A DNA stretch of 64,000 nucleotides from Candidatus Omnitrophota bacterium (GTDB taxonomy: Bacteria; Omnitrophota; Gorgyraeia; Tantalellales; Tantalellaceae). The first letter of the stretch is position 1, and the number at the start of each line of letters is the position of its first letter. The position numbers were made by a program, and so were the translations under genes. This document shows positions 20,671-61,319 of this stretch, piece by piece. Location: contig JBDRKO010000026.1 of NCBI GenBank assembly GCA_043813915.1, positions 66,236 through 130,235 on the forward strand, given 5' to 3'. A model generated the notes under the pieces. That model had not been told where the DNA came from. It did no database searches and saw only the letters and a program-made list of their open reading frames with translations.

Positions 20671-20924
20671 CAGGGCATGGCGCATAGTATTAAGAGAGAC
20701 GAAGGAAGAGCTGTTCCCTTGTCATCCCGACCGAACGAAGAGAGCGGAGGGATCTGGTTAAAAGAACATCGGAATCGGGAGATTCCGATGCACCTCGAAC
20801 ATTACGTTCTCGGCGCCTCGATTCGCCTTTGGCTCACTCGGGATGACAGGGTAGGGACATTTTACGAATCACCCCAGCAGATTTCTTCGAAATCTAAGCG
20901 CTGGGGCAGGCGAATTACGAAATC

Positions 20925-22436
20925 ATGACACATAACACATTACACATGACACATAACACAATTTTGCTAACGTTGCTTTTGCTGGCGGGAATACTGCTCT
21001 TCACCAATCTTGGCAATCAGTATCTTTGGCAGGATGAGGCGGAAACAGCGTGTTTGGCGAAAAATACTTTGAAGTACGGCTTTCCAAGGGCATTTGACGG
21101 TGAAAACACCGTAAACCCAAGGATAGGGGAACACTCTCATGTAGGGTTCGGTAAAGATTTCGCATGGCTTTATCATCCTTGGATGCAATTCTACATTACC
21201 GCCGGTTCTTTTTTTCTTTTCGGAATAAGCACATTTACGGCGCGTCTTCCTTTTGCTCTCATCGGACTGTTTAATTTGATACTGCTTTATTTCTTGGCGC
21301 TTAGAATAACAAAAATAAGATTTGTCGCTGTTTGTTCGGTGCTTTTAACCGCGCTTTCCGTCCCGTATCTTCTTATGATGCGGCAATGCAGATATTATGC
21401 TCCGTCGGTGTTCTTTGTGCTTGCCGCTCTTTTTTTCTATTCCCGGTTCAGAGAGAGCAGATCCAACGGGGATCTGGCGTTAACTGCAACGGCTCTGATA
21501 GCTCTGGGATATACGGTGCACGGCATTTTCGTGCCGGTCTATGCGGCTATCGGCATTCATTATATGTTTTTCTCTTTCGACAAAAAGACCTTTCCTCGGG
21601 TGGCGGCGGCGGGAATGTTCACGCTGGCGGCCGTTTTCTGGTGGTTCCTGTTATCCCAAAGTTCGGGGCATATCGCGGTTATTGCTCCGGATAAGATATT
21701 CGGCAATCTTGAGTTTCAGATACGGATGATAAATAAGTATATATTCCCGGTGATGTTTTTCGGGGCAATTTACTGTATCAGAGCCGTCTGGAAGAGGAAG
21801 ATCGGAATTGATCTTATGTCCGAAGAAAAACAGGCTATCAGTTTGATAGGTCTGGTTGTTTTAGTAAGTATTATAACGTTCTGTTTTGTAGAACAAAGGC
21901 ATCTGAGATATTTTGTGTATTTTATACCGTTATTGGCCATGGTACAAGGGCTGATATTGTTGCGTTTAGCCAGGCGGAGCAAGGTGCTTTTGGCGGGATT
22001 CCTAGCGGTCTCTGTTATCACCGGTACTTTTAATATGGGGTACCCGAACTTTCTTTTACCAAAATATATTTACGAGATAACCCATGATTATGACGGACCG
22101 ATAGAAGGCATAGTCAAGTTCCTTGAAAAGAACGCGTCTAAAGGAGATACGGTAAAGATCATATACGGGGATCTGCCGTTGATATTTTATACAGGTCTTA
22201 AAATAGATAATTCCTGGGTCTATGACGATGAGCATATGCCTAGGTGGATAGTCTTTAGACGCGGATGGCATGAGCAGTTAACTAACGATTATTACACGAA
22301 AGTAACTAAAAAATACAAAGAATATGTCCTGGCGTATCCGGATATTTTGTACGAGAACCGGCCGGGCGACCTCGGTTACCACAAATTCGCGACGGACAAG
22401 GAAGCGCCGGGGGTAATAGTGTTCGGGAGGAAATAG
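20925..22436 (+). CDS. ArnT/PMT-like GT-C membrane glycosyltransferase (third paralogue)
   Basis: Polytopic; first loop YLWQDEAETACLAKNT has the DE motif; annotated 5' end runs through an ACACATAACACA repeat module so the true start is probably further downstream. Confidence 0.45.
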   Translation: MTHNTLHMTHNTILLTLLLLAGILLFTNLGNQYLWQDEAETACLAKNTLKYGFPRAFDGENTVNPRIGEHSHVGFGKDFAWLYHPWMQFYITAGSFFLFGISTFTARLPFALIGLFNLILLYFLALRITKIRFVAVCSVLLTALSVPYLLMMRQCRYYAPSVFFVLAALFFYSRFRESRSNGDLALTATALIALGYTVHGIFVPVYAAIGIHYMFFSFDKKTFPRVAAAGMFTLAAVFWWFLLSQSSGHIAVIAPDKIFGNLEFQIRMINKYIFPVMFFGAIYCIRAVWKRKIGIDLMSEEKQAISLIGLVVLVSIITFCFVEQRHLRYFVYFIPLLAMVQGLILLRLARRSKVLLAGFLAVSVITGTFNMGYPNFLLPKYIYEITHDYDGPIEGIVKFLEKNASKGDTVKIIYGDLPLIFYTGLKIDNSWVYDDEHMPRWIVFRRGWHEQLTNDYYTKVTKKYKEYVLAYPDILYENRPGDLGYHKFATDKEAPGVIVFGRK

Positions 22437-22570
22437 AAATAATTGTGTAAGGTGTTATGTGTAATGTGGGGAGGAATTAGTTAAAGGTTAACAAGGGCAT
22501 AGAGCACAGGGCAGAAATGGAGATAGAGGATAGAAACTAGAAACTATATTGGACCATAGACTATTGGATA

Positions 22571-22650
22571 AAGTTACCAGAAACCGGTTACCAGTTACCA
22601 GGGGAAAAGACGTAGATTACTGGTTACAGGTAACAGGCAACTGGTTATTG
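22571..22650. repeat. hairpin-forming intergenic repeat family A (GTTACCAGAAACCGGTTACCAGTTACCAG ... CTGGTTACAGGTAACAGGCAACTGGTTA), MITE-like
   Basis: Four copies: 22571-22650, 26755-26786 (left arm only), 26998-27068, 42588-42655; internal inverted symmetry. Confidence 0.7.
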
Positions 22651-22667
22651 TTAGTAAGGTACAAATC

Positions 22668-22960
22668 ACCCCCTGCAGATTTTTTTGAAATCTAAGCGCG
22701 GGAGCAGGCAAGGCGCCGAGGACGAAATGTTCGAGGTGGGCAAAACGTCCCCGTTTTGACGGAGGTTCCGTTTGCGAGGGAAGCAGTCTAAAAGTCGAAG
22801 GTGGAAGTTCTGAGGACACTCTTCCCGTGGGAGTATAAGCCCTGGCCGAAGAATGTCCCCAGAATATATTTTTATTTCTGTTCACGCTATACGACATTCG
22901 CTATACTCTACACGATATACAAATTAACTGCCATGCGCTGTGCTCTATGCTAATTGTCAC
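22668..22960. repeat. about 300-bp composite repeat, copy 1 (contains AGATTTCTTCGAAATCT palindrome, GACGAAATGTCCGAGGTGGGCAAAACGTCCCCGTTTTGACGGA, GAATGTCCCCAGAATATATTTTTATTTCTGTTCACGCTATACGACATTCGCTATACTCTA)
   Basis: Near-identical to 44761-45105; shorter fragments at 18894-18960, 52340-52360, 52478-52515. Confidence 0.75.
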
Positions 22961-26694: not shown

Positions 26695-27151
26695 GTAGAG
26701 CAGAAGTCAGAAGACAGAGGTTAGAAGTCAGAGTGTAGGGGCACGGCATTATATAGAGTTACCAGAAACCGGTTACCAGTTACCAGAAGAAAGACGAGGG
26801 ACGAGATTGCCGCGTCGCTTCGCTCCTCGCAATGACGGATGGGGGGGTTCCGCTTTCGCTAAGGCTAAGGTGGATAGGCGCAATGACGGGTGGAGATAGA
26901 AGGACGAGATAAAACAAGTATTAAGTGTTAAGTTGTAAGTGTTATGTGGAATGTATGGCGATAATGGCATAGAGCATAGAGCGTAGAGCGTTAAATAAAG
27001 TTACCAGAAACCGGTTACCAGTTACCAGGGAAAAGCCTTAGATCACTGGTAACAGGCAACTGGTTACTTTGAAGAAGTCACTGTTCAAGGCCATGCGCCA
27101 TGCTCTATGCCCTATGCGGTTATTTTTATGTTAGCTACACAAGGAGTTCCG

Positions 27152-42045: not shown

Positions 42046-42698
42046 GGGAGAAAGAAATAGAAGTCAGAAATCAGAAGACAGAGGTCAGAAGACAGAGGCC
42101 AGAGGGAAGATAGACGAAGGACGAAAGAAGAAGGACGAGGGAAGAGCTGCTCTCTTGTCATTCCGACCGATTTCTGTGAAGCTTTAGCGAAGCAGAAGAG
42201 CGGAGGAATCTGGTTAAACACAAGAAAGATCCCTCAACTCGTTGCACTCGTTCGGGATGACAGAGCGGGGGCAGGCAAAGGAGATATTGGGTAGAAGATC
42301 CTGAAGGAGAGTCAAAGAGTCATCGCGCTTCGCGCTAGAGTCAGAGAGTCAGGTTGGACCGAGGTGGAAATAGAGTTATGTGTGATGTTATGATGAGGAA
42401 GTGGTTCTTGTTGCTCGTCATTGCGAACTCCGAGCTATGCGAGGGGTGAAGCAATCCCGGATCTTATAGAGATTGCTTCGTCGCCTGCGGCTTCTCGCAA
42501 TGACGGAGTGAGTGCGAATCACGACTTATGCTGTGCCCTTTGCTCTGTGCTCTATGCTGTTAAAGGTTCGTTAAGCAAAGTTACCAGAAACCGGTTACCA
42601 GTTACCAGAAGAACGACGTGATTTGCTGGTTACATGTAACAGGCAACTGGTTACTATTTGTTAGGCACAAATTACCGCTCGCAAAAAAACGATACATT

Positions 42699-44575: not shown

Positions 44576-44760
44576 AGGTCAGAGGATAAAAGAAGTATCA
44601 GAGTGTCAAAGTGTCAGAGTGTCAGAGATGAGCTAAGGAAAAAAGACGATGGACGAGAAAGAGTTTTAAGTGTTATGTGGGATGGAAATAGTTAAAGGTT
44701 AACAAGGGCATAGAGCACAGGGCACAGCGCATAGCATTAAGAAAGACGAAGGAAGAAGGA

Positions 44761-45105
44761 CCCCGGCAGATTTCTTCGAAATCGAAGCGCGGGGGCAGAC
44801 GAAGCGCCGAGGCACCGAGGCACCGAGGACGAAATGTCCGAGGAAGTACTGAGGCCTCCCGGCCGAAGTGACGAAATGTCCGAGGTGGGCAAAACGTCCC
44901 CGTTTTGACGGAAGTCCCGTTTGCGAGGGAAGCAGCCTAAAAGGCGAAGGTGGAAGTTCTGAGGACACTCTTTCCATGGGAGTATAAGCCCTAGTCGAAG
45001 AATGTCCCCAGAATATATTTTTATTTCTGTTCACGCTATACGACATTCGCTATACTCTATACAATATACGAATTAACTGCCATGCCCTGTGCTCTGTGCG
45101 CTATG
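44761..45105. repeat. about 340-bp composite repeat, copy 2 (with internal CGAGGCACCGAGGCACCGAGGAC tandem expansion)
   Basis: Aligns module-for-module with 22668-22960. Confidence 0.75.
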
Positions 45106-46930: not shown

Positions 46931-47044
46931 AACCCGCTTACGCCGAACTATTTAGGTTTCATCTGGCTTCAGCGGGTTAATTCGCACGTATAACTTATAC
47001 CCCTTACAGTTGTATAAGTTATGTGCTCATTAAGGAGAATGTAA
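46931..47044 (+). promoter_or_regulatory. related structured leader upstream of leuC (diverged third copy)
   Basis: cccgct...agcggg hairpin then ttaattcgcacgtataacttatac...tgtataagttatgtgctcattaaggagaatgtaaATG; same architecture and same RBS context. Confidence 0.45.
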
Positions 47045-50039: not shown

Positions 50040-50075
50040 AAGAGTAGGGGCACGGCATGCCGTGCCCCTACATTA
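50040..50075. repeat. palindromic element GTAGGGGCACGGCATGCCGTGCCCCTAC (family H), terminator-like, after leuB
   Basis: Perfect 14-bp inverted repeat; further copies at 55358-55395 (after argC), 52055-52085 (after truA, 1 mismatch), half-site 26738-26755. Confidence 0.7.
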
Positions 50076-51278: not shown

Positions 51279-52013
51279 ATGCGGAATATCAAACTTACCA
51301 TAGCCTACGACGGCACCGATTACAAAGGCTGGCAAAAACAAAAGAACGGTCCTTCCGTACAGCAGGAAATAGAAAAAGCGCTAAAAGCGCTTTTTAAAAA
51401 AACATTCAAGGTGCAGGGCGCGAGCCGAACCGATTCCGGTGTCCATGCCAAAGGGCAGGCAGCGCATTTCGTTATAAACCAGGACATCCCGGTCCGTAAT
51501 ATCCCTCATGCGCTCAACCGAATGCTGCCGCAAGACATTGTTGTTGTCGCCGCGGAAGAAGAAAGCGGTGAGTTCCATTCCAGGTTCGACGCGAGATCGA
51601 AGATATACAGGTACCACATACTTAATTCCGATGTTCCGGACCCTTTCCAAGAGAAATATTCATGGCGTATACCTTATAGATTGAACATCAGCCTGATGCA
51701 GAAAGAAGCCAAGGGTTTTGAAGGACGGCATGATTTCAGGTCTTTCCAAGCGTCGGACAAGAAAGAAAGAACATCGGTGAGAAACATATTTTATGTAGAA
51801 ATAAGAAAAAAGGGTCCATCTGTTATCATAGAGATAGAAGGGGACGGTTTTCTTTACAATATGGTGCGCAATATCGTCGGTACGCTGGTGGATGTAGGAA
51901 GAGGATATTTGCCCGCCGGCAGTATTAAAAAGATACTGGCGAAAAAAGACAGGACTTCCGCGGGGCCTACCGCTCCTGCCAAAGGATTATTTTTGATGGA
52001 AGTGAAGTACTGA
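51279..52013 (+). CDS. truA: tRNA pseudouridine(38-40) synthase
   Basis: IAYDGTDYKGWQKQ N-terminal motif, catalytic RTDSGVHA; start placed after two hairpins following asd. Confidence 0.8.
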   Translation: MRNIKLTIAYDGTDYKGWQKQKNGPSVQQEIEKALKALFKKTFKVQGASRTDSGVHAKGQAAHFVINQDIPVRNIPHALNRMLPQDIVVVAAEEESGEFHSRFDARSKIYRYHILNSDVPDPFQEKYSWRIPYRLNISLMQKEAKGFEGRHDFRSFQASDKKERTSVRNIFYVEIRKKGPSVIIEIEGDGFLYNMVRNIVGTLVDVGRGYLPAGSIKKILAKKDRTSAGPTAPAKGLFLMEVKY

Positions 52014-52578
52014 GACCTAGGAGCAGAAGACAGAAGTCAGACGTCAGAGTGTAGGGGCACGGCATGACGTGCCCTATATGGTTTACGAATCACCCCCGCA
52101 GATTTCTTCGAAATCTAAGCGCGGGGGCAGGCGAAGGACGAGAAAAAAGTGTTAAGTGTTAAGTTTTAAGTGTTATGTGCGGTGTATAATGGCAAAGCGC
52201 ATAGGGTTAAGAAGTCAGAAGGAAGAAGCGTACCGGACTATAGACTATTGACCATAGACTATAGACCAAGAGCTTATAAGTCAATCGTCAATGGTCTGTT
52301 CGGGCTGTTCCCGAGTCACGAAGCACTAATTACTGGTCGAAGAATGTCCCCAGAATAAGGCGCATAGCATTAAGAAAGACGAAGGAAGAAGGACGCGGGA
52401 CGAAGGACGAGATTGCCGCGTCGCTTCGCTCCTCGCAATGACGGAGTAGTCACGAATCACGAATTACTGGACGAAGAATGTCCCCAGAATATATTTTTAT
52501 TTCTGTTCACGTTAAAGAAAGTCCAAGCCTAGAATGATCTCCCGTTAAAGATATCAGCAACTACAGTTATTAATGCAA

Positions 52579-52607
52579 AGACCGGAACTATTTTCGGTCT
52601 TTTTTTT
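52579..52607 (+). terminator. rho-independent terminator (agaccggaa...ttcggtct followed by T8)
   Basis: Short GC stem followed by tttttttt run, just upstream of the AbrB-like gene promoter. Confidence 0.5.
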
Positions 52608-52616
52608 GTTTTTTAA

Positions 52617-52660
52617 TTGACAAGTATTAATACTTGTTATATACTTGTTGCATACTTGTT
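52617..52660 (+). promoter_or_regulatory. promoter (TTGACA-17-TATACT) with three direct ATACTTGTT repeats phased at 11 bp overlapping the -10 region
   Basis: TTGACA 52617-52622, TATACT 52640-52645; ATACTTGTT at 52630, 52641, 52652 (one helical turn apart), immediately upstream of the AbrB-like gene. Confidence 0.5.
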
Positions 52661-52690
52661 ATATCCGATGAACGAATAAGGAGAGAAAGC

Positions 52691-52870
52691 GTGAGAGGGA
52701 AGTTCCGGTTAAAATTCTTAGCAACTGTTTCCAATCGGGGGCAGATCTTCATACCCAAGGTTCTTCAGGGATATTTCGGGATAAGAAAGAGGGACAAAGT
52801 TACTTTTGTCCTGCAGAATGACGGTAATGTTGTTTTCAGGAAAACGACCGAAGGAGAGAAAAATGGGTAA
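52691..52870 (+). CDS. AbrB/MazE/SpoVT-type swapped-hairpin DNA-binding protein (antitoxin-like)
   Basis: GTG start with aaggagag SD; RGQIFIPKVLQGYFGIRKRDKVTF matches the looped-hinge-helix AbrB/SpoVT consensus. Confidence 0.5.
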   Translation: MRGKFRLKFLATVSNRGQIFIPKVLQGYFGIRKRDKVTFVLQNDGNVVFRKTTEGEKNG

Positions 52871-53039
52871 AAAGCAGTACAAGCACAGCGTGACCATTAA
52901 CGACAAACGGAGAGACAGGAAACGGAACAATGATCGTATGAGCAAAGAGTCCTGCGACCAGTCACTGCAGGTAGTTTTTAATACCCTATATAAGGATCAG
53001 GTAAGAGCTCTTTATAGAGCAATATCAAAAGGGAATTGA
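52863..53039 (+). CDS. small basic protein (58 aa) of unknown function, 8-nt overlap with upstream AbrB-like gene
   Basis: ATGGGTAA overlap with the AbrB-like stop (translational coupling); Lys/Arg-rich N-terminal half; no recognisable family. Confidence 0.3.
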   Translation: MGKKQYKHSVTINDKRRDRKRNNDRMSKESCDQSLQVVFNTLYKDQVRALYRAISKGN

Positions 53040-53154
53040 TAGCCTTCGATCCGGACCGGTCTAGACCATATCGCCGGGGGATAAAACGCGTAGCCGGCTG
53101 TTCCCGCGCGGTTTGCGTTGATCCGCATAAGAGCCAAGCCGCTTCTGATAGTTC

Positions 53155-53183
53155 TTGACAAACCTACCTAAATATGCTAATTT
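53155..53183 (+). promoter_or_regulatory. candidate promoter of rplM-rpsI (TTGACA-17-TAATTT)
   Basis: TTGACA at 53155-53160, 17-nt spacer, TAATTT at 53178-53183, about 75 nt upstream of rplM. Confidence 0.4.
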
Positions 53184-53258
53184 TACACTTCAGTTTTTAT
53201 ATCACCCTGAACAAGGGTGTTGATACGTGTCGAAAAAAGGGATGAGAAGAGGAAGAGC

Positions 53259-53690
53259 ATGAATAAGACCATAATGGCAAAGTCTTCGGAAACGGATCGC
53301 AGTTGGTATATTATCGACGTGGAAGGAAAGATATTGGGCCGGGCGGCTACTAAAATAGCTAAACTGCTTAGCGGAAAAACACGTCCGGATTATACGCCGA
53401 ATGTCGATACGGGGGCCGGAGTGATCGTTCTGAACTGCGGAGAGGTAAAGGTTACGGGCGCGAAAACGGAACAAAAAATGTATAAAAGTTTTTCGGGTTA
53501 TCCCGGCGGGCAGAAGGAAATAGTTTACAGTAAGATGAAAGAAAAGAACCCGAGACATATAATGAGGCATGCTGTAAAGGGGATGCTTCCCAAGAATAAA
53601 CTGGGGGCTTTGATGATAAAGAGGCTTAAACTGTATGTGGGTAAGGAACATCCTCATACAGCACAAAAGCCCGTTGAAATAAAATTGTAA
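53259..53690 (+). CDS. rplM: 50S ribosomal protein L13
   Basis: [17 protein letters not shown]...YTPNVDTG matches L13 N-terminus; gaggaag SD. Confidence 0.9.
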
Positions 53691-55358: not shown

Positions 55359-55413
55359 AAGAGTAGGGGCACGGCATGCCGTGCCCCTACATCAACATAC
55401 GCAGAGGAAATAT

Positions 55414-59873: not shown

Positions 59874-59970
59874 CCCCGCCCTTTTAAAGGGAAAAGGGCG
59901 GGGTTAATTCGGCCGTATAACTTATGTTCGTTATCACTCCATAAGTTATGGCCTCATTAAGGAGAATGTA
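59874..59970 (+). promoter_or_regulatory. conserved structured leader (GC hairpin + ATAACTTATG/CATAAGTTAT hairpin + RBS) upstream of argG
   Basis: 56 nt identical to the argH leader (61262-61317); related copy upstream of leuC (46931-47044). Confidence 0.5.
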
Positions 59971-61227: not shown

Positions 61228-61319
61228 TCCCGCCCTTTTACAAAAGGGCGGGATTAATTCGGCCGTATAACTTATGTTCGTTATCACTCCATAAGTTATG
61301 GCCTCATTAAGGAGTTGTC
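61228..61319 (+). promoter_or_regulatory. conserved structured leader upstream of argH (second copy)
   Basis: cccgcccttttacaaaagggcggg hairpin then ttaattcggccgtataacttatgttcgttatcactccataagttatggcctcattaaggag identical to argG copy. Confidence 0.5.

Follow-up and report, generated by a model that had tools for sequence, protein, structure and literature searches.

In Bacillus, the repressors SinR and AbrB are encoded with, or work with, a modulator of about 60 residues, SinI and AbbA respectively. Both modulators counteract the repressor, AbbA as an acidic mimic of DNA. MraZ consists of two AbrB-like halves per chain. This member of the AbrB superfamily forms octamers or larger rings and autoregulates by binding cooperatively to three or four short boxes, spaced by about one turn (~10 base pairs, bp), over its own promoter and start site; the boxes, GTG(G/T) separated by six spacer nucleotides (nt), are all direct and lie upstream of the dcw cluster (PMC12957436). 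Antitoxins of the AbrB type have a two-domain architecture with a C-terminal toxin-binding region (PMC4803016). Here we describe a two-gene locus in a 64,000-nt stretch of DNA from a Candidatus Omnitrophota bacterium (contig JBDRKO010000026.1, positions 66,236 to 130,235), which we call the window. In it, the open reading frame (ORF) ORF1, predicted to encode a minimal AbrB-type DNA-binding protein, overlaps ORF2, a gene for a small basic protein of a new family, and both stand behind a promoter overlaid with repeated 8-bp boxes.

We lean towards reading this locus as an independent, negatively autoregulated two-gene operon that encodes an AbrB-type repressor together with a new small nucleic-acid-binding partner. 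The anatomy of the locus, the fold assignment of ORF1, the coding constraint on ORF2, the strict co-occurrence of the two genes, their synteny and the conservation of the operator are established directly. Scanning a single genome from each species, we found relatives of ORF1 at 61 loci in ~44 genomes. The parts of the locus are, in window coordinates:

52577..52612, + strand: terminator-like hairpin AAAGACCGGAA-CTAT-TTTCGGTCTTT followed by a T-run; 11-pair stem, T-rich tail; just 5' of the promoter.
52617..52645, + strand: sigma-70-type promoter, TTGACA (52617-52622), 17-nt spacer, TATACT (52640-52645); 11 of 12 consensus positions.
52620..52627, − strand: operator box 1, ACAAGTAT, an inverted ATACTTGT; overlaps the −35 hexamer; ~2 bits per position in the 61-locus profile.
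52630..52637, + strand: operator box 2, ATACTTGT; within the spacer between the hexamers and 10 bp from box 1.
52641..52648, + strand: operator box 3, ATACTTGT; overlaps the −10 hexamer, 11 bp from box 2.
52652..52659, + strand: operator box 4, ATACTTGT; near where transcription is predicted to start and 11 bp from box 3; optional, in 12 of 61 loci.
52678..52683, + strand: Shine-Dalgarno sequence of ORF1, AAGGAG, read from the sequence; 7 nt 5' of the GTG.
52691..52870, + strand: ORF1, GTG start at 52691, TAA stop at 52868-52870; 59 amino acids (aa), isoelectric point (pI) 11.1; predicted stand-alone swapped-hairpin AbrB/SpoVT-type domain.
52851..52856, + strand: Shine-Dalgarno sequence of ORF2, AAGGAG, read from the sequence; within the 3' end of ORF1, 6 nt 5' of the ATG.
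52863..53039, + strand: ORF2, ATG at 52863, stop at 53037-53039; 58 aa, pI 10.2; small basic protein of a new family.

An earlier note on this DNA had described a TTGACA-17-TATACT promoter overlapped by three direct repeats spaced 11 bp apart. Both are there: the promoter is the best promoter-like site within 51900-53400, with transcription predicted from the −10 position to start near 52652, and the ATACTTGTT repeats start at 52630, 52641 and 52652 (start-to-start spacing 11 and 11). Two features go beyond that description, namely the inverted fourth box at −35, which together with box 2 forms a perfect palindrome, ACAAGTAT-TA-ATACTTGT, and the hairpin at 52577-52612. The octamer ATACTTGT occurs eight times in the window, against 1.24 copies expected, and none of 100 shuffles reached eight; four of the eight copies fall in 52620-52659.

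We built an operator profile from the 61 unique upstream regions, anchored on the −35 hexamer (consensus cTTGACAAGTATtaATACTTGtTaTATACTTGTtata). The 34-bp operator consensus cTTGACAAGTATtaATACTTGtTaTATACTTGT carries ~2 bits at 27 positions and its flanks ~0 bits. The −35 and −10 hexamers are nearly invariant. The spacer box, box 2, is also conserved across loci, whereas the spacer of the nearby rplM promoter is variable; this conservation is more than promoter function alone explains. The same boxes are kept in pairs of both ORF2 subtypes, A and B (described below), including paralogues of one genome, and the operator is kept at nearly every position across species whose proteins share only 50-75% identity. 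The operator half of the autoregulatory layout proposed in the earlier note therefore stands, as a set of repeats conserved at 61 loci; the autoregulation itself we infer.

In 682 kb of locus DNA, 112 of 115 box clusters are this promoter, and the pair's promoter is the sole operator-like cluster in the 64-kb window. As for a wider regulon, the window and the 682 kb of loci held no additional operator-like clusters. A scan of metagenome contigs for the exact 28-nt operator pattern returned 45 stretches, of which 30 are followed by an ORF1 relative and nine by an ORF2-family gene alone; three lie at a contig end. The last three (L080, L082 and L112) are copies of one unrelated sequence, identical to each other, that have no −35 hexamer and precede reverse transcriptase- or retroelement-like ORFs. 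Here the pattern probably arose by chance, within a repeated element from an unrelated organism.

The GTG-start gene with a good Shine-Dalgarno sequence that had been noticed at 52691-52870 is present, with AAGGAG 7 nt before its start; alignment of relatives backs the GTG, and the longer TTG ORF at 52634 is not matched. Its stop overlaps the start of ORF2 by 8 nt (ATGGGTAA, 52863-52870), also as described before. Of 57 ORF1/ORF2 junctions across the loci, 43 overlap, and overlaps of 4 and 1 nt are the commonest. The earlier note had proposed a search for the small ORF beside AbrB/MazE genes in other genomes; we found an ORF2 relative directly 3' of ORF1, on the same strand, in 61 of 61 loci. 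Between ORF1 and ORF2 of L043 (~2668-2820) lies a 50-aa chimeric ORF, MRRKKKKHLHKVSIPEALENRFGSYNRKKIQFLVTSDGDILMRKKKEGRR, with an ORF2-like N-terminus and an ORF1-like C-terminal half, which suggests local duplication and deletion inside the operon. In the unrelated loci L051 (2672-2878) and L056 (2904-3173) the pair adjoins a further short ORF (MRY.TVIK..C ... AGEYLRGN ...), whose C-terminus is hydrophobic and which may be an occasional third gene.

ORF2 is a genuine coding gene under purifying selection. Differences between orthologues fall mostly at third codon positions (21104, against 12698 at first and 11385 at second positions), and nonsynonymous divergence (pN) is 0.15-0.40 against a synonymous divergence (pS) of 0.6-0.95. 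The proposal that ORF2 is no real gene and that chance produced the repeats, which has in its favour the small size of ORF2, its lack of a family match and nothing else, we regard as practically refuted: besides this codon pattern, the gene is present at all 61 loci and in 106 cluster representatives at E<=0.001 (one of them unrelated), the octamer count went unreached in the shuffles and the operator is conserved. Lack of conservation in relatives had been named in advance as fatal to the original reading of the small ORF; the gene proved to be conserved. What had been described as a Lys/Arg-rich 58-aa ORF without recognisable family is thus a real conserved gene.

The same two proteins were found on contigs of Candidatus Omnitrophota metagenome-assembled genomes (MAGs), which hold all 61 ORF1 loci, at one to three loci per genome; 16 genomes have two or three pairs. 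In the window the local gene order is leuC-leuD-leuB-asd-truA-ORF1-ORF2-rplM-rpsI-argC-argJ, and the order leuCD-leuB-asd-truA-pair-rplM-rpsI-argCJBD is repeated in divergent species. Pairs of subtype A mostly occupy this truA-pair-rplM-rpsI slot. Those of subtype B lie elsewhere, often before an icd-like gene and guaA, or before pfkA (names assigned from motifs in the translated sequences). For 54 of the 61 ORF1 relatives, the nearest ORF1 neighbour carries the same ORF2 subtype, which indicates that the operon was duplicated as a unit. No relatives of the ORF1 family were found in viral contigs, and none of ORF2 in phage or plasmid records. The pair is inherited vertically in many Omnitrophota and is not mobile. 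Many MAG records with the operon in leu-asd-truA-rplM synteny (L018-L020, L026, L029 and others) are titled 'uncultured Planctomycetia bacterium', a label that is probably coarse or wrong.

Taken singly, the ORF1 sequence gave only sub-threshold matches: PrlF_antitoxin (E=6.2e-6, the best Pfam match), MazE_antitoxin and the NCBIfam AbrB domain (E=1.4e-4). In bits against the curated cut-off, it scored 26.7 against 32 for PF15937, 16.5 against 24.7 for PF04014 and 21.5 against 28.3 for TIGR01439. Many ORF1 relatives carry a precomputed PF15937 match. A family profile of 32 relatives, compared with the PDB, found 2glw (a tandem swapped-hairpin protein, E=1.2e-5) and the N-domain of SpoVT (E=6e-4). 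An AlphaFold2 (AF2) model of the monomer (predicted local distance difference test score, pLDDT, 77) superposed on SpoVT-N with a probability of 1.00, a TM-score of 0.66 (query-normalised) and a root-mean-square deviation of 1.2 Å, and its top 16 PDB matches were all AbrB-superfamily domains; it also superposed on AbrB-N, Abh-N, Sso7c4, Sso7c4-like 'histone-like' proteins and MazE. By its modelled fold, ORF1 is a member of the SpoVT/AbrB superfamily, and the profile matches and the superposition bear out its first description as a swapped-hairpin protein of the AbrB/SpoVT/MazE type. Across the 32 relatives the core TVSxRGQIFIPKVLQxYF is invariant. Past the last strand, most of 61 relatives have a tail of only 4-7 residues (median 6), so that ORF1 has no toxin-binding domain. 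As far as its sequence goes, it is a bare DNA-binding domain, with neither a toxin-binding nor an oligomerisation domain.

A direct search with ORF2 found four relatives at 66-77% identity. Profile searches extended these to 75 proteins in a set of 5.8 billion and to 106 cluster representatives (E<=0.001) in a set of 1.84 billion; of the 106, one repetitive protein of 631 aa is unrelated, and all others are ~53-88 aa long. No Pfam domain or informative name was found on any ORF2-family protein from these profile searches. The window protein matched nothing in Pfam, NCBIfam or PADLOC, and a Pfam search of 69 members returned scattered noise only. Judged by these relatives, ORF2 is the founder of an undescribed family of ~100 clusters. 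Its N-terminal part carries the segment HxVTIND-KRRxxKK, and its C-terminal part an amphipathic helix, VFNxxYKDQVRALYRAI. The helix, in the form (V/I)(F/Y)Nx(Y/F)Y(K/R)DQVxALYRA(V/I), is common to the relatives, and the N-terminal halves differ. In this half, subtype A, to which the window protein belongs, has KLHTHKVTINDKRRxNKKxxD and subtype B has KKYIQACEIGGSIYGKKRxxGKKVSPxH; in the subtype-B version (for example in P0050, P0053 and L020 2671-2865) a Cys, a Gly and a GK.VSP.H motif are invariant.

Comparison with solved structures, using whole-family and subtype-B profiles, gave no significant match; the best was a Staufen double-stranded RNA-binding domain (dsRBD), in a beta-strand region, at E=0.12. 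The AF2 monomer (69 sequences, pLDDT 80) has an extended N-terminus and one long helix, residues 18-56, and Foldseek with this model found no match, as expected of a single helix. Two further candidates were set aside. ORF2 as a detached piece of ORF1 or AbrB received a probability of 0.1% when the two families were aligned with hhalign. Subtype B has a HicA- or dsRBD-like look (GGSIY ... VSPxH ... KKDL), spotted by eye; no HicA match in Pfam or the PDB appeared at any threshold, and the position of the catalytic His of HicA is Ile, Met or Phe.

These properties bear on the type II toxin-antitoxin module that the earlier note had seen here, with ORF1 as an AbrB-fold antitoxin and autorepressor and ORF2 as a novel small toxin. 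We consider this reading quite improbable. The locus does have two small, overlapping, translationally coupled genes, the DNA-binding one first, under a repeat-bearing promoter whose operator would allow autoregulation; the best Pfam and NCBIfam matches of ORF1 are to the PrlF and MazE antitoxin families; and a genome can hold up to three copies. Against this, the median tail of 6 residues in ORF1 contrasts with the C-terminal toxin-binding region of AbrB-type antitoxins (PMC4803016), and ORF2 matches no toxin or defence family and no solved structure. Both proteins are strongly basic, with a net charge of ~+8.5 each. The distribution is not patchy or mobile: divergent species have the pair at one and the same syntenic position, and searches of the viral, phage and plasmid collections returned no relative. 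Paralogues of one genome keep the same operator and ORF1 core, the opposite of insulated toxin-antitoxin paralogues. Loci with ORF2 alone also exist (see below), and they argue against a toxin that needs a cis-encoded antidote. The public name of ORF1, 'type II toxin-antitoxin system', is probably misleading. Of the 'novel small toxin or co-repressor' offered before as the partner of an AbrB-fold protein, it is the co-repressor that fits the evidence better, and the toxin that looks unlikely.

The genomic position of subtype A raises another idea, that ORF2 is an RNA- or ribosome-associated small basic protein under ORF1 control and that its link to rplM-rpsI is functional. Subtype A lies just upstream of these genes in the same orientation, no consensus terminator was detected in the intervening DNA of the window, ORF2 is very basic, and the subtype-B protein P0050 weakly matches the N-terminal half of Ribosomal_L28 (E=0.0013, 19.2 bits). 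That match is below the gathering score (27 for PF00830), however, and E<=0.1 was reached by only two of 69 members; the second, at E=0.045, is likewise under the cut-off. The match was not reproduced in the PDB, where a search with a subtype-B profile, with E allowed up to 10, returned no bL28 chain. Moreover, subtype-B pairs adjoin unrelated genes (icd-like and guaA, or pfkA), and rplM has its own conserved promoter. We think a ribosomal role of this kind very improbable.

In the autoregulated operon that we favour, three or four 8-bp ATACTTGT boxes, one inverted and the rest direct, would cover a strong promoter from −35 to about +1, and their 10-11 bp spacing would place them all on one face of the helix. 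ORF1 dimers most likely bind the boxes cooperatively and block RNA polymerase. ORF2, translationally coupled to ORF1, is most likely a nucleic-acid-binding partner or co-regulator that could bridge or modulate ORF1 dimers; a role as bridging cofactor is plausible because ORF1 has no oligomerisation domain. Alternatively, ORF2 may be the tightly controlled product of the operon. Since paralogous copies in one genome have a common operator, they may form a small cross-regulated set. Upstream, the hairpin at 52577-52612 would shield the pair's promoter from upstream transcription; a comparable hairpin and T-run precede the promoter in L015, L035, L040, L046, L063 and L069.

Several points weigh against this picture. 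The protein that binds the boxes, the repression itself and the role of ORF2 are inferred. The boxes are only half-symmetric and mostly direct, whereas AbrB-type dimers are symmetric, and the AF2 monomer of ORF2 is only one long helix. Most pointedly, the operator, fully conserved, stands directly before an ORF2 relative in L085/L103, L091, L092/L111, L096, L102, L108 and L122. In the DNA examined for all of these except L122 there is no ORF1 gene, and in L122 the 120-nt gap before ORF2 is too short for one. Either ORF1 paralogues act in trans at these loci or ORF2 itself recognises the operator. Several of the ORF2-only loci are still in the truA/rplM slot, and L121 has the same N-terminal variant as an ORF2-only relative, yet an ORF1 gene upstream.

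The second of these options amounts to a different operon, in which ORF2 is the protein that binds the operator sequence-specifically, perhaps a very divergent ribbon-helix-helix (RHH)-like or basic-helix dimer on arrays of direct and inverted boxes in the manner of omega and MetJ, and ORF1 is an accessory general DNA binder. An ORF2-family gene follows every operator bar three contig ends and one unrelated repeated sequence, and ORF1 is sometimes missing. The order of elements in subtype A is also that of an RHH protein: an alternating H-K-V-T-I-N segment (V10 and I12 are 100% hydrophobic), then come a basic helix, a turn at G29-x-S31-K, where Gly is found in 47%, and finally a long helix; hhalign lays KGxSKxxLxxVFNxYY on the CopG segment GLSKSAMISVALENY. 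The probability of that alignment is 1%, however, and 0.2% against omega (both reference sequences were entered by hand). No RHH Pfam family appeared among 69 members, AF2 draws residues 18-56 as one continuous helix without a break, and nearly all residues of the putative first helix are charged, which is unusual in the core of an RHH protein. Suggestive as the order of motifs is, hhalign, Pfam and AF2 all fail to support RHH membership. The sole demonstrable DNA-binding fold in the pair is that of ORF1, whose core is invariant. We therefore hold ORF2 to be an unlikely reader of the operator in this sense.

A more ambitious form of the autoregulated operon would join both proteins in one DNA-binding machine, in which a minimal AbrB domain and a new small basic helical protein together read an invariant 34-bp operator at one to three cross-regulated loci per genome across Omnitrophota. 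We put this forward tentatively, as a possibility that we doubt more than we believe. If it were true, ORF2 would represent either a nucleic-acid-binding fold not seen before or a novel kind of AbrB cofactor, and in lineages that have ORF2 alone, this protein could itself read the operator.

The 570-nt spacer between truA and the pair (52013-52580) is a mosaic of short dispersed intergenic repeat modules, with related copies at ~20680-20950, 22450-22950, 26700-27070, 42070-42690 and 44590-45100. Among the modules are CGAAGAATGTCCCCAGAATATATTTTTATTTCTGTTCACG, which has four exact 20-mer copies, each of them on the + strand, as well as runs of GTGTCAGAGTGTCA and of the purine-rich GACGAAGGAAGAAGGACG. 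Related genomes can have a far shorter spacer here, ~115 nt in L005 and L009 and ~440 nt in L012. A G+C-rich palindrome, GTAGGGGCACGGCATGCCGTGCCCCTAC, lies at 50044-50071 after leuB, at 52051-52075 after truA (imperfect) and at 55363-55390 before argJ, with a half copy at 26735-26749; it is terminator-like or resembles repetitive extragenic palindromic elements, and it is the source of spurious 'MPCPY' ORFs. Downstream of the pair, the rplM promoter region CTTGACAA-N9-AAATATGCTAATTTTACA (53155-53190) is conserved in the divergent Omnitrophota L005, L009 and L012, with a variable spacer. Farther away, a 73-nt repeat family has three copies (46965-47037, 59892-59964 and 61242-61314), two of them 99% identical, with an internal inverted repeat CGTATAACTTATG ... 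CATAAGTTATG and the end TTAAGGAG; it could be a 5' leader or regulatory element common to the three sites. An Rfam scan of 51900-53400 gave one sub-threshold match (16.9 bits against 60) and no known RNA.

Omnitrophota are uncultured, often ultra-small bacteria, and we know of no transcription factor from this phylum that has been characterised so far; our literature search found no paper joining Omnitrophota and AbrB. The locus offers a complete and compact regulatory unit, with a near-consensus promoter, a 34-bp operator, a minimal AbrB-domain protein and, obligately linked to it, a partner from an unannotated family. A further lesson is that an 'AbrB/PrlF antitoxin' annotation next to a small ORF is not to be taken as a toxin-antitoxin module by default. 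Should ORF2 turn out to act as a cofactor, or to bind DNA or RNA independently, it would add a new small-protein family to the AbrB regulatory repertoire.

Among known systems, ORF1 itself is closest to the stand-alone swapped-hairpin proteins. The archaeal Sso7c4, C68 (of pSSVx), AbrB-N, SpoVT-N and the 'histone-like' proteins 5itj/5itm likewise present a single swapped-hairpin domain of ~50 residues, and like Sso7c4 and C68, ORF1 has no second domain. Its model matches C68 with a probability of 0.72 and the others with 0.99-1.00, and the TM-score is ~0.6-0.66 (query-normalised) for the leading matches. Unlike these proteins, with which it shares only 20-25% identity, ORF1 has its own invariant motif, TVSxRGQIFIPKVLQ, and always comes with a small partner gene of its own and a specific operator of repeated boxes. 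To our knowledge, a partner gene and a repeated operator have not been described for any of these proteins.

As an operon, the locus shares with MazE, PrlF and AbrB-type VapB the DNA-binding fold, the place of its gene first in an overlapping two-gene operon, and an operator over the promoter. It differs from them in that ORF1 has no toxin-binding region, the partner is not MazF, YhaV or a PIN protein, and the pair is syntenic, not mobile. A partner of SinI or AbbA size is present, but unlike these two ORF2 is strongly basic and is not known to resemble them in sequence, and ORF1 does not have the helical domain bound by SinI-type partners. The likeness to MraZ is in the operator, where four 8-bp boxes, 10-11 bp apart, lie over the −35, spacer, −10 and +1 in an analogous layout. 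ORF1 is not MraZ: it is a single 59-aa domain where MraZ has two tandem half-domains (~150 aa), one of its boxes is inverted, and the locus lies between truA and rplM, unrelated to dcw, of which mraZ is the first gene. By analogy, then, the operon would work most like an AbrB- or MraZ-type autoregulated unit to which a dedicated small partner has been added.

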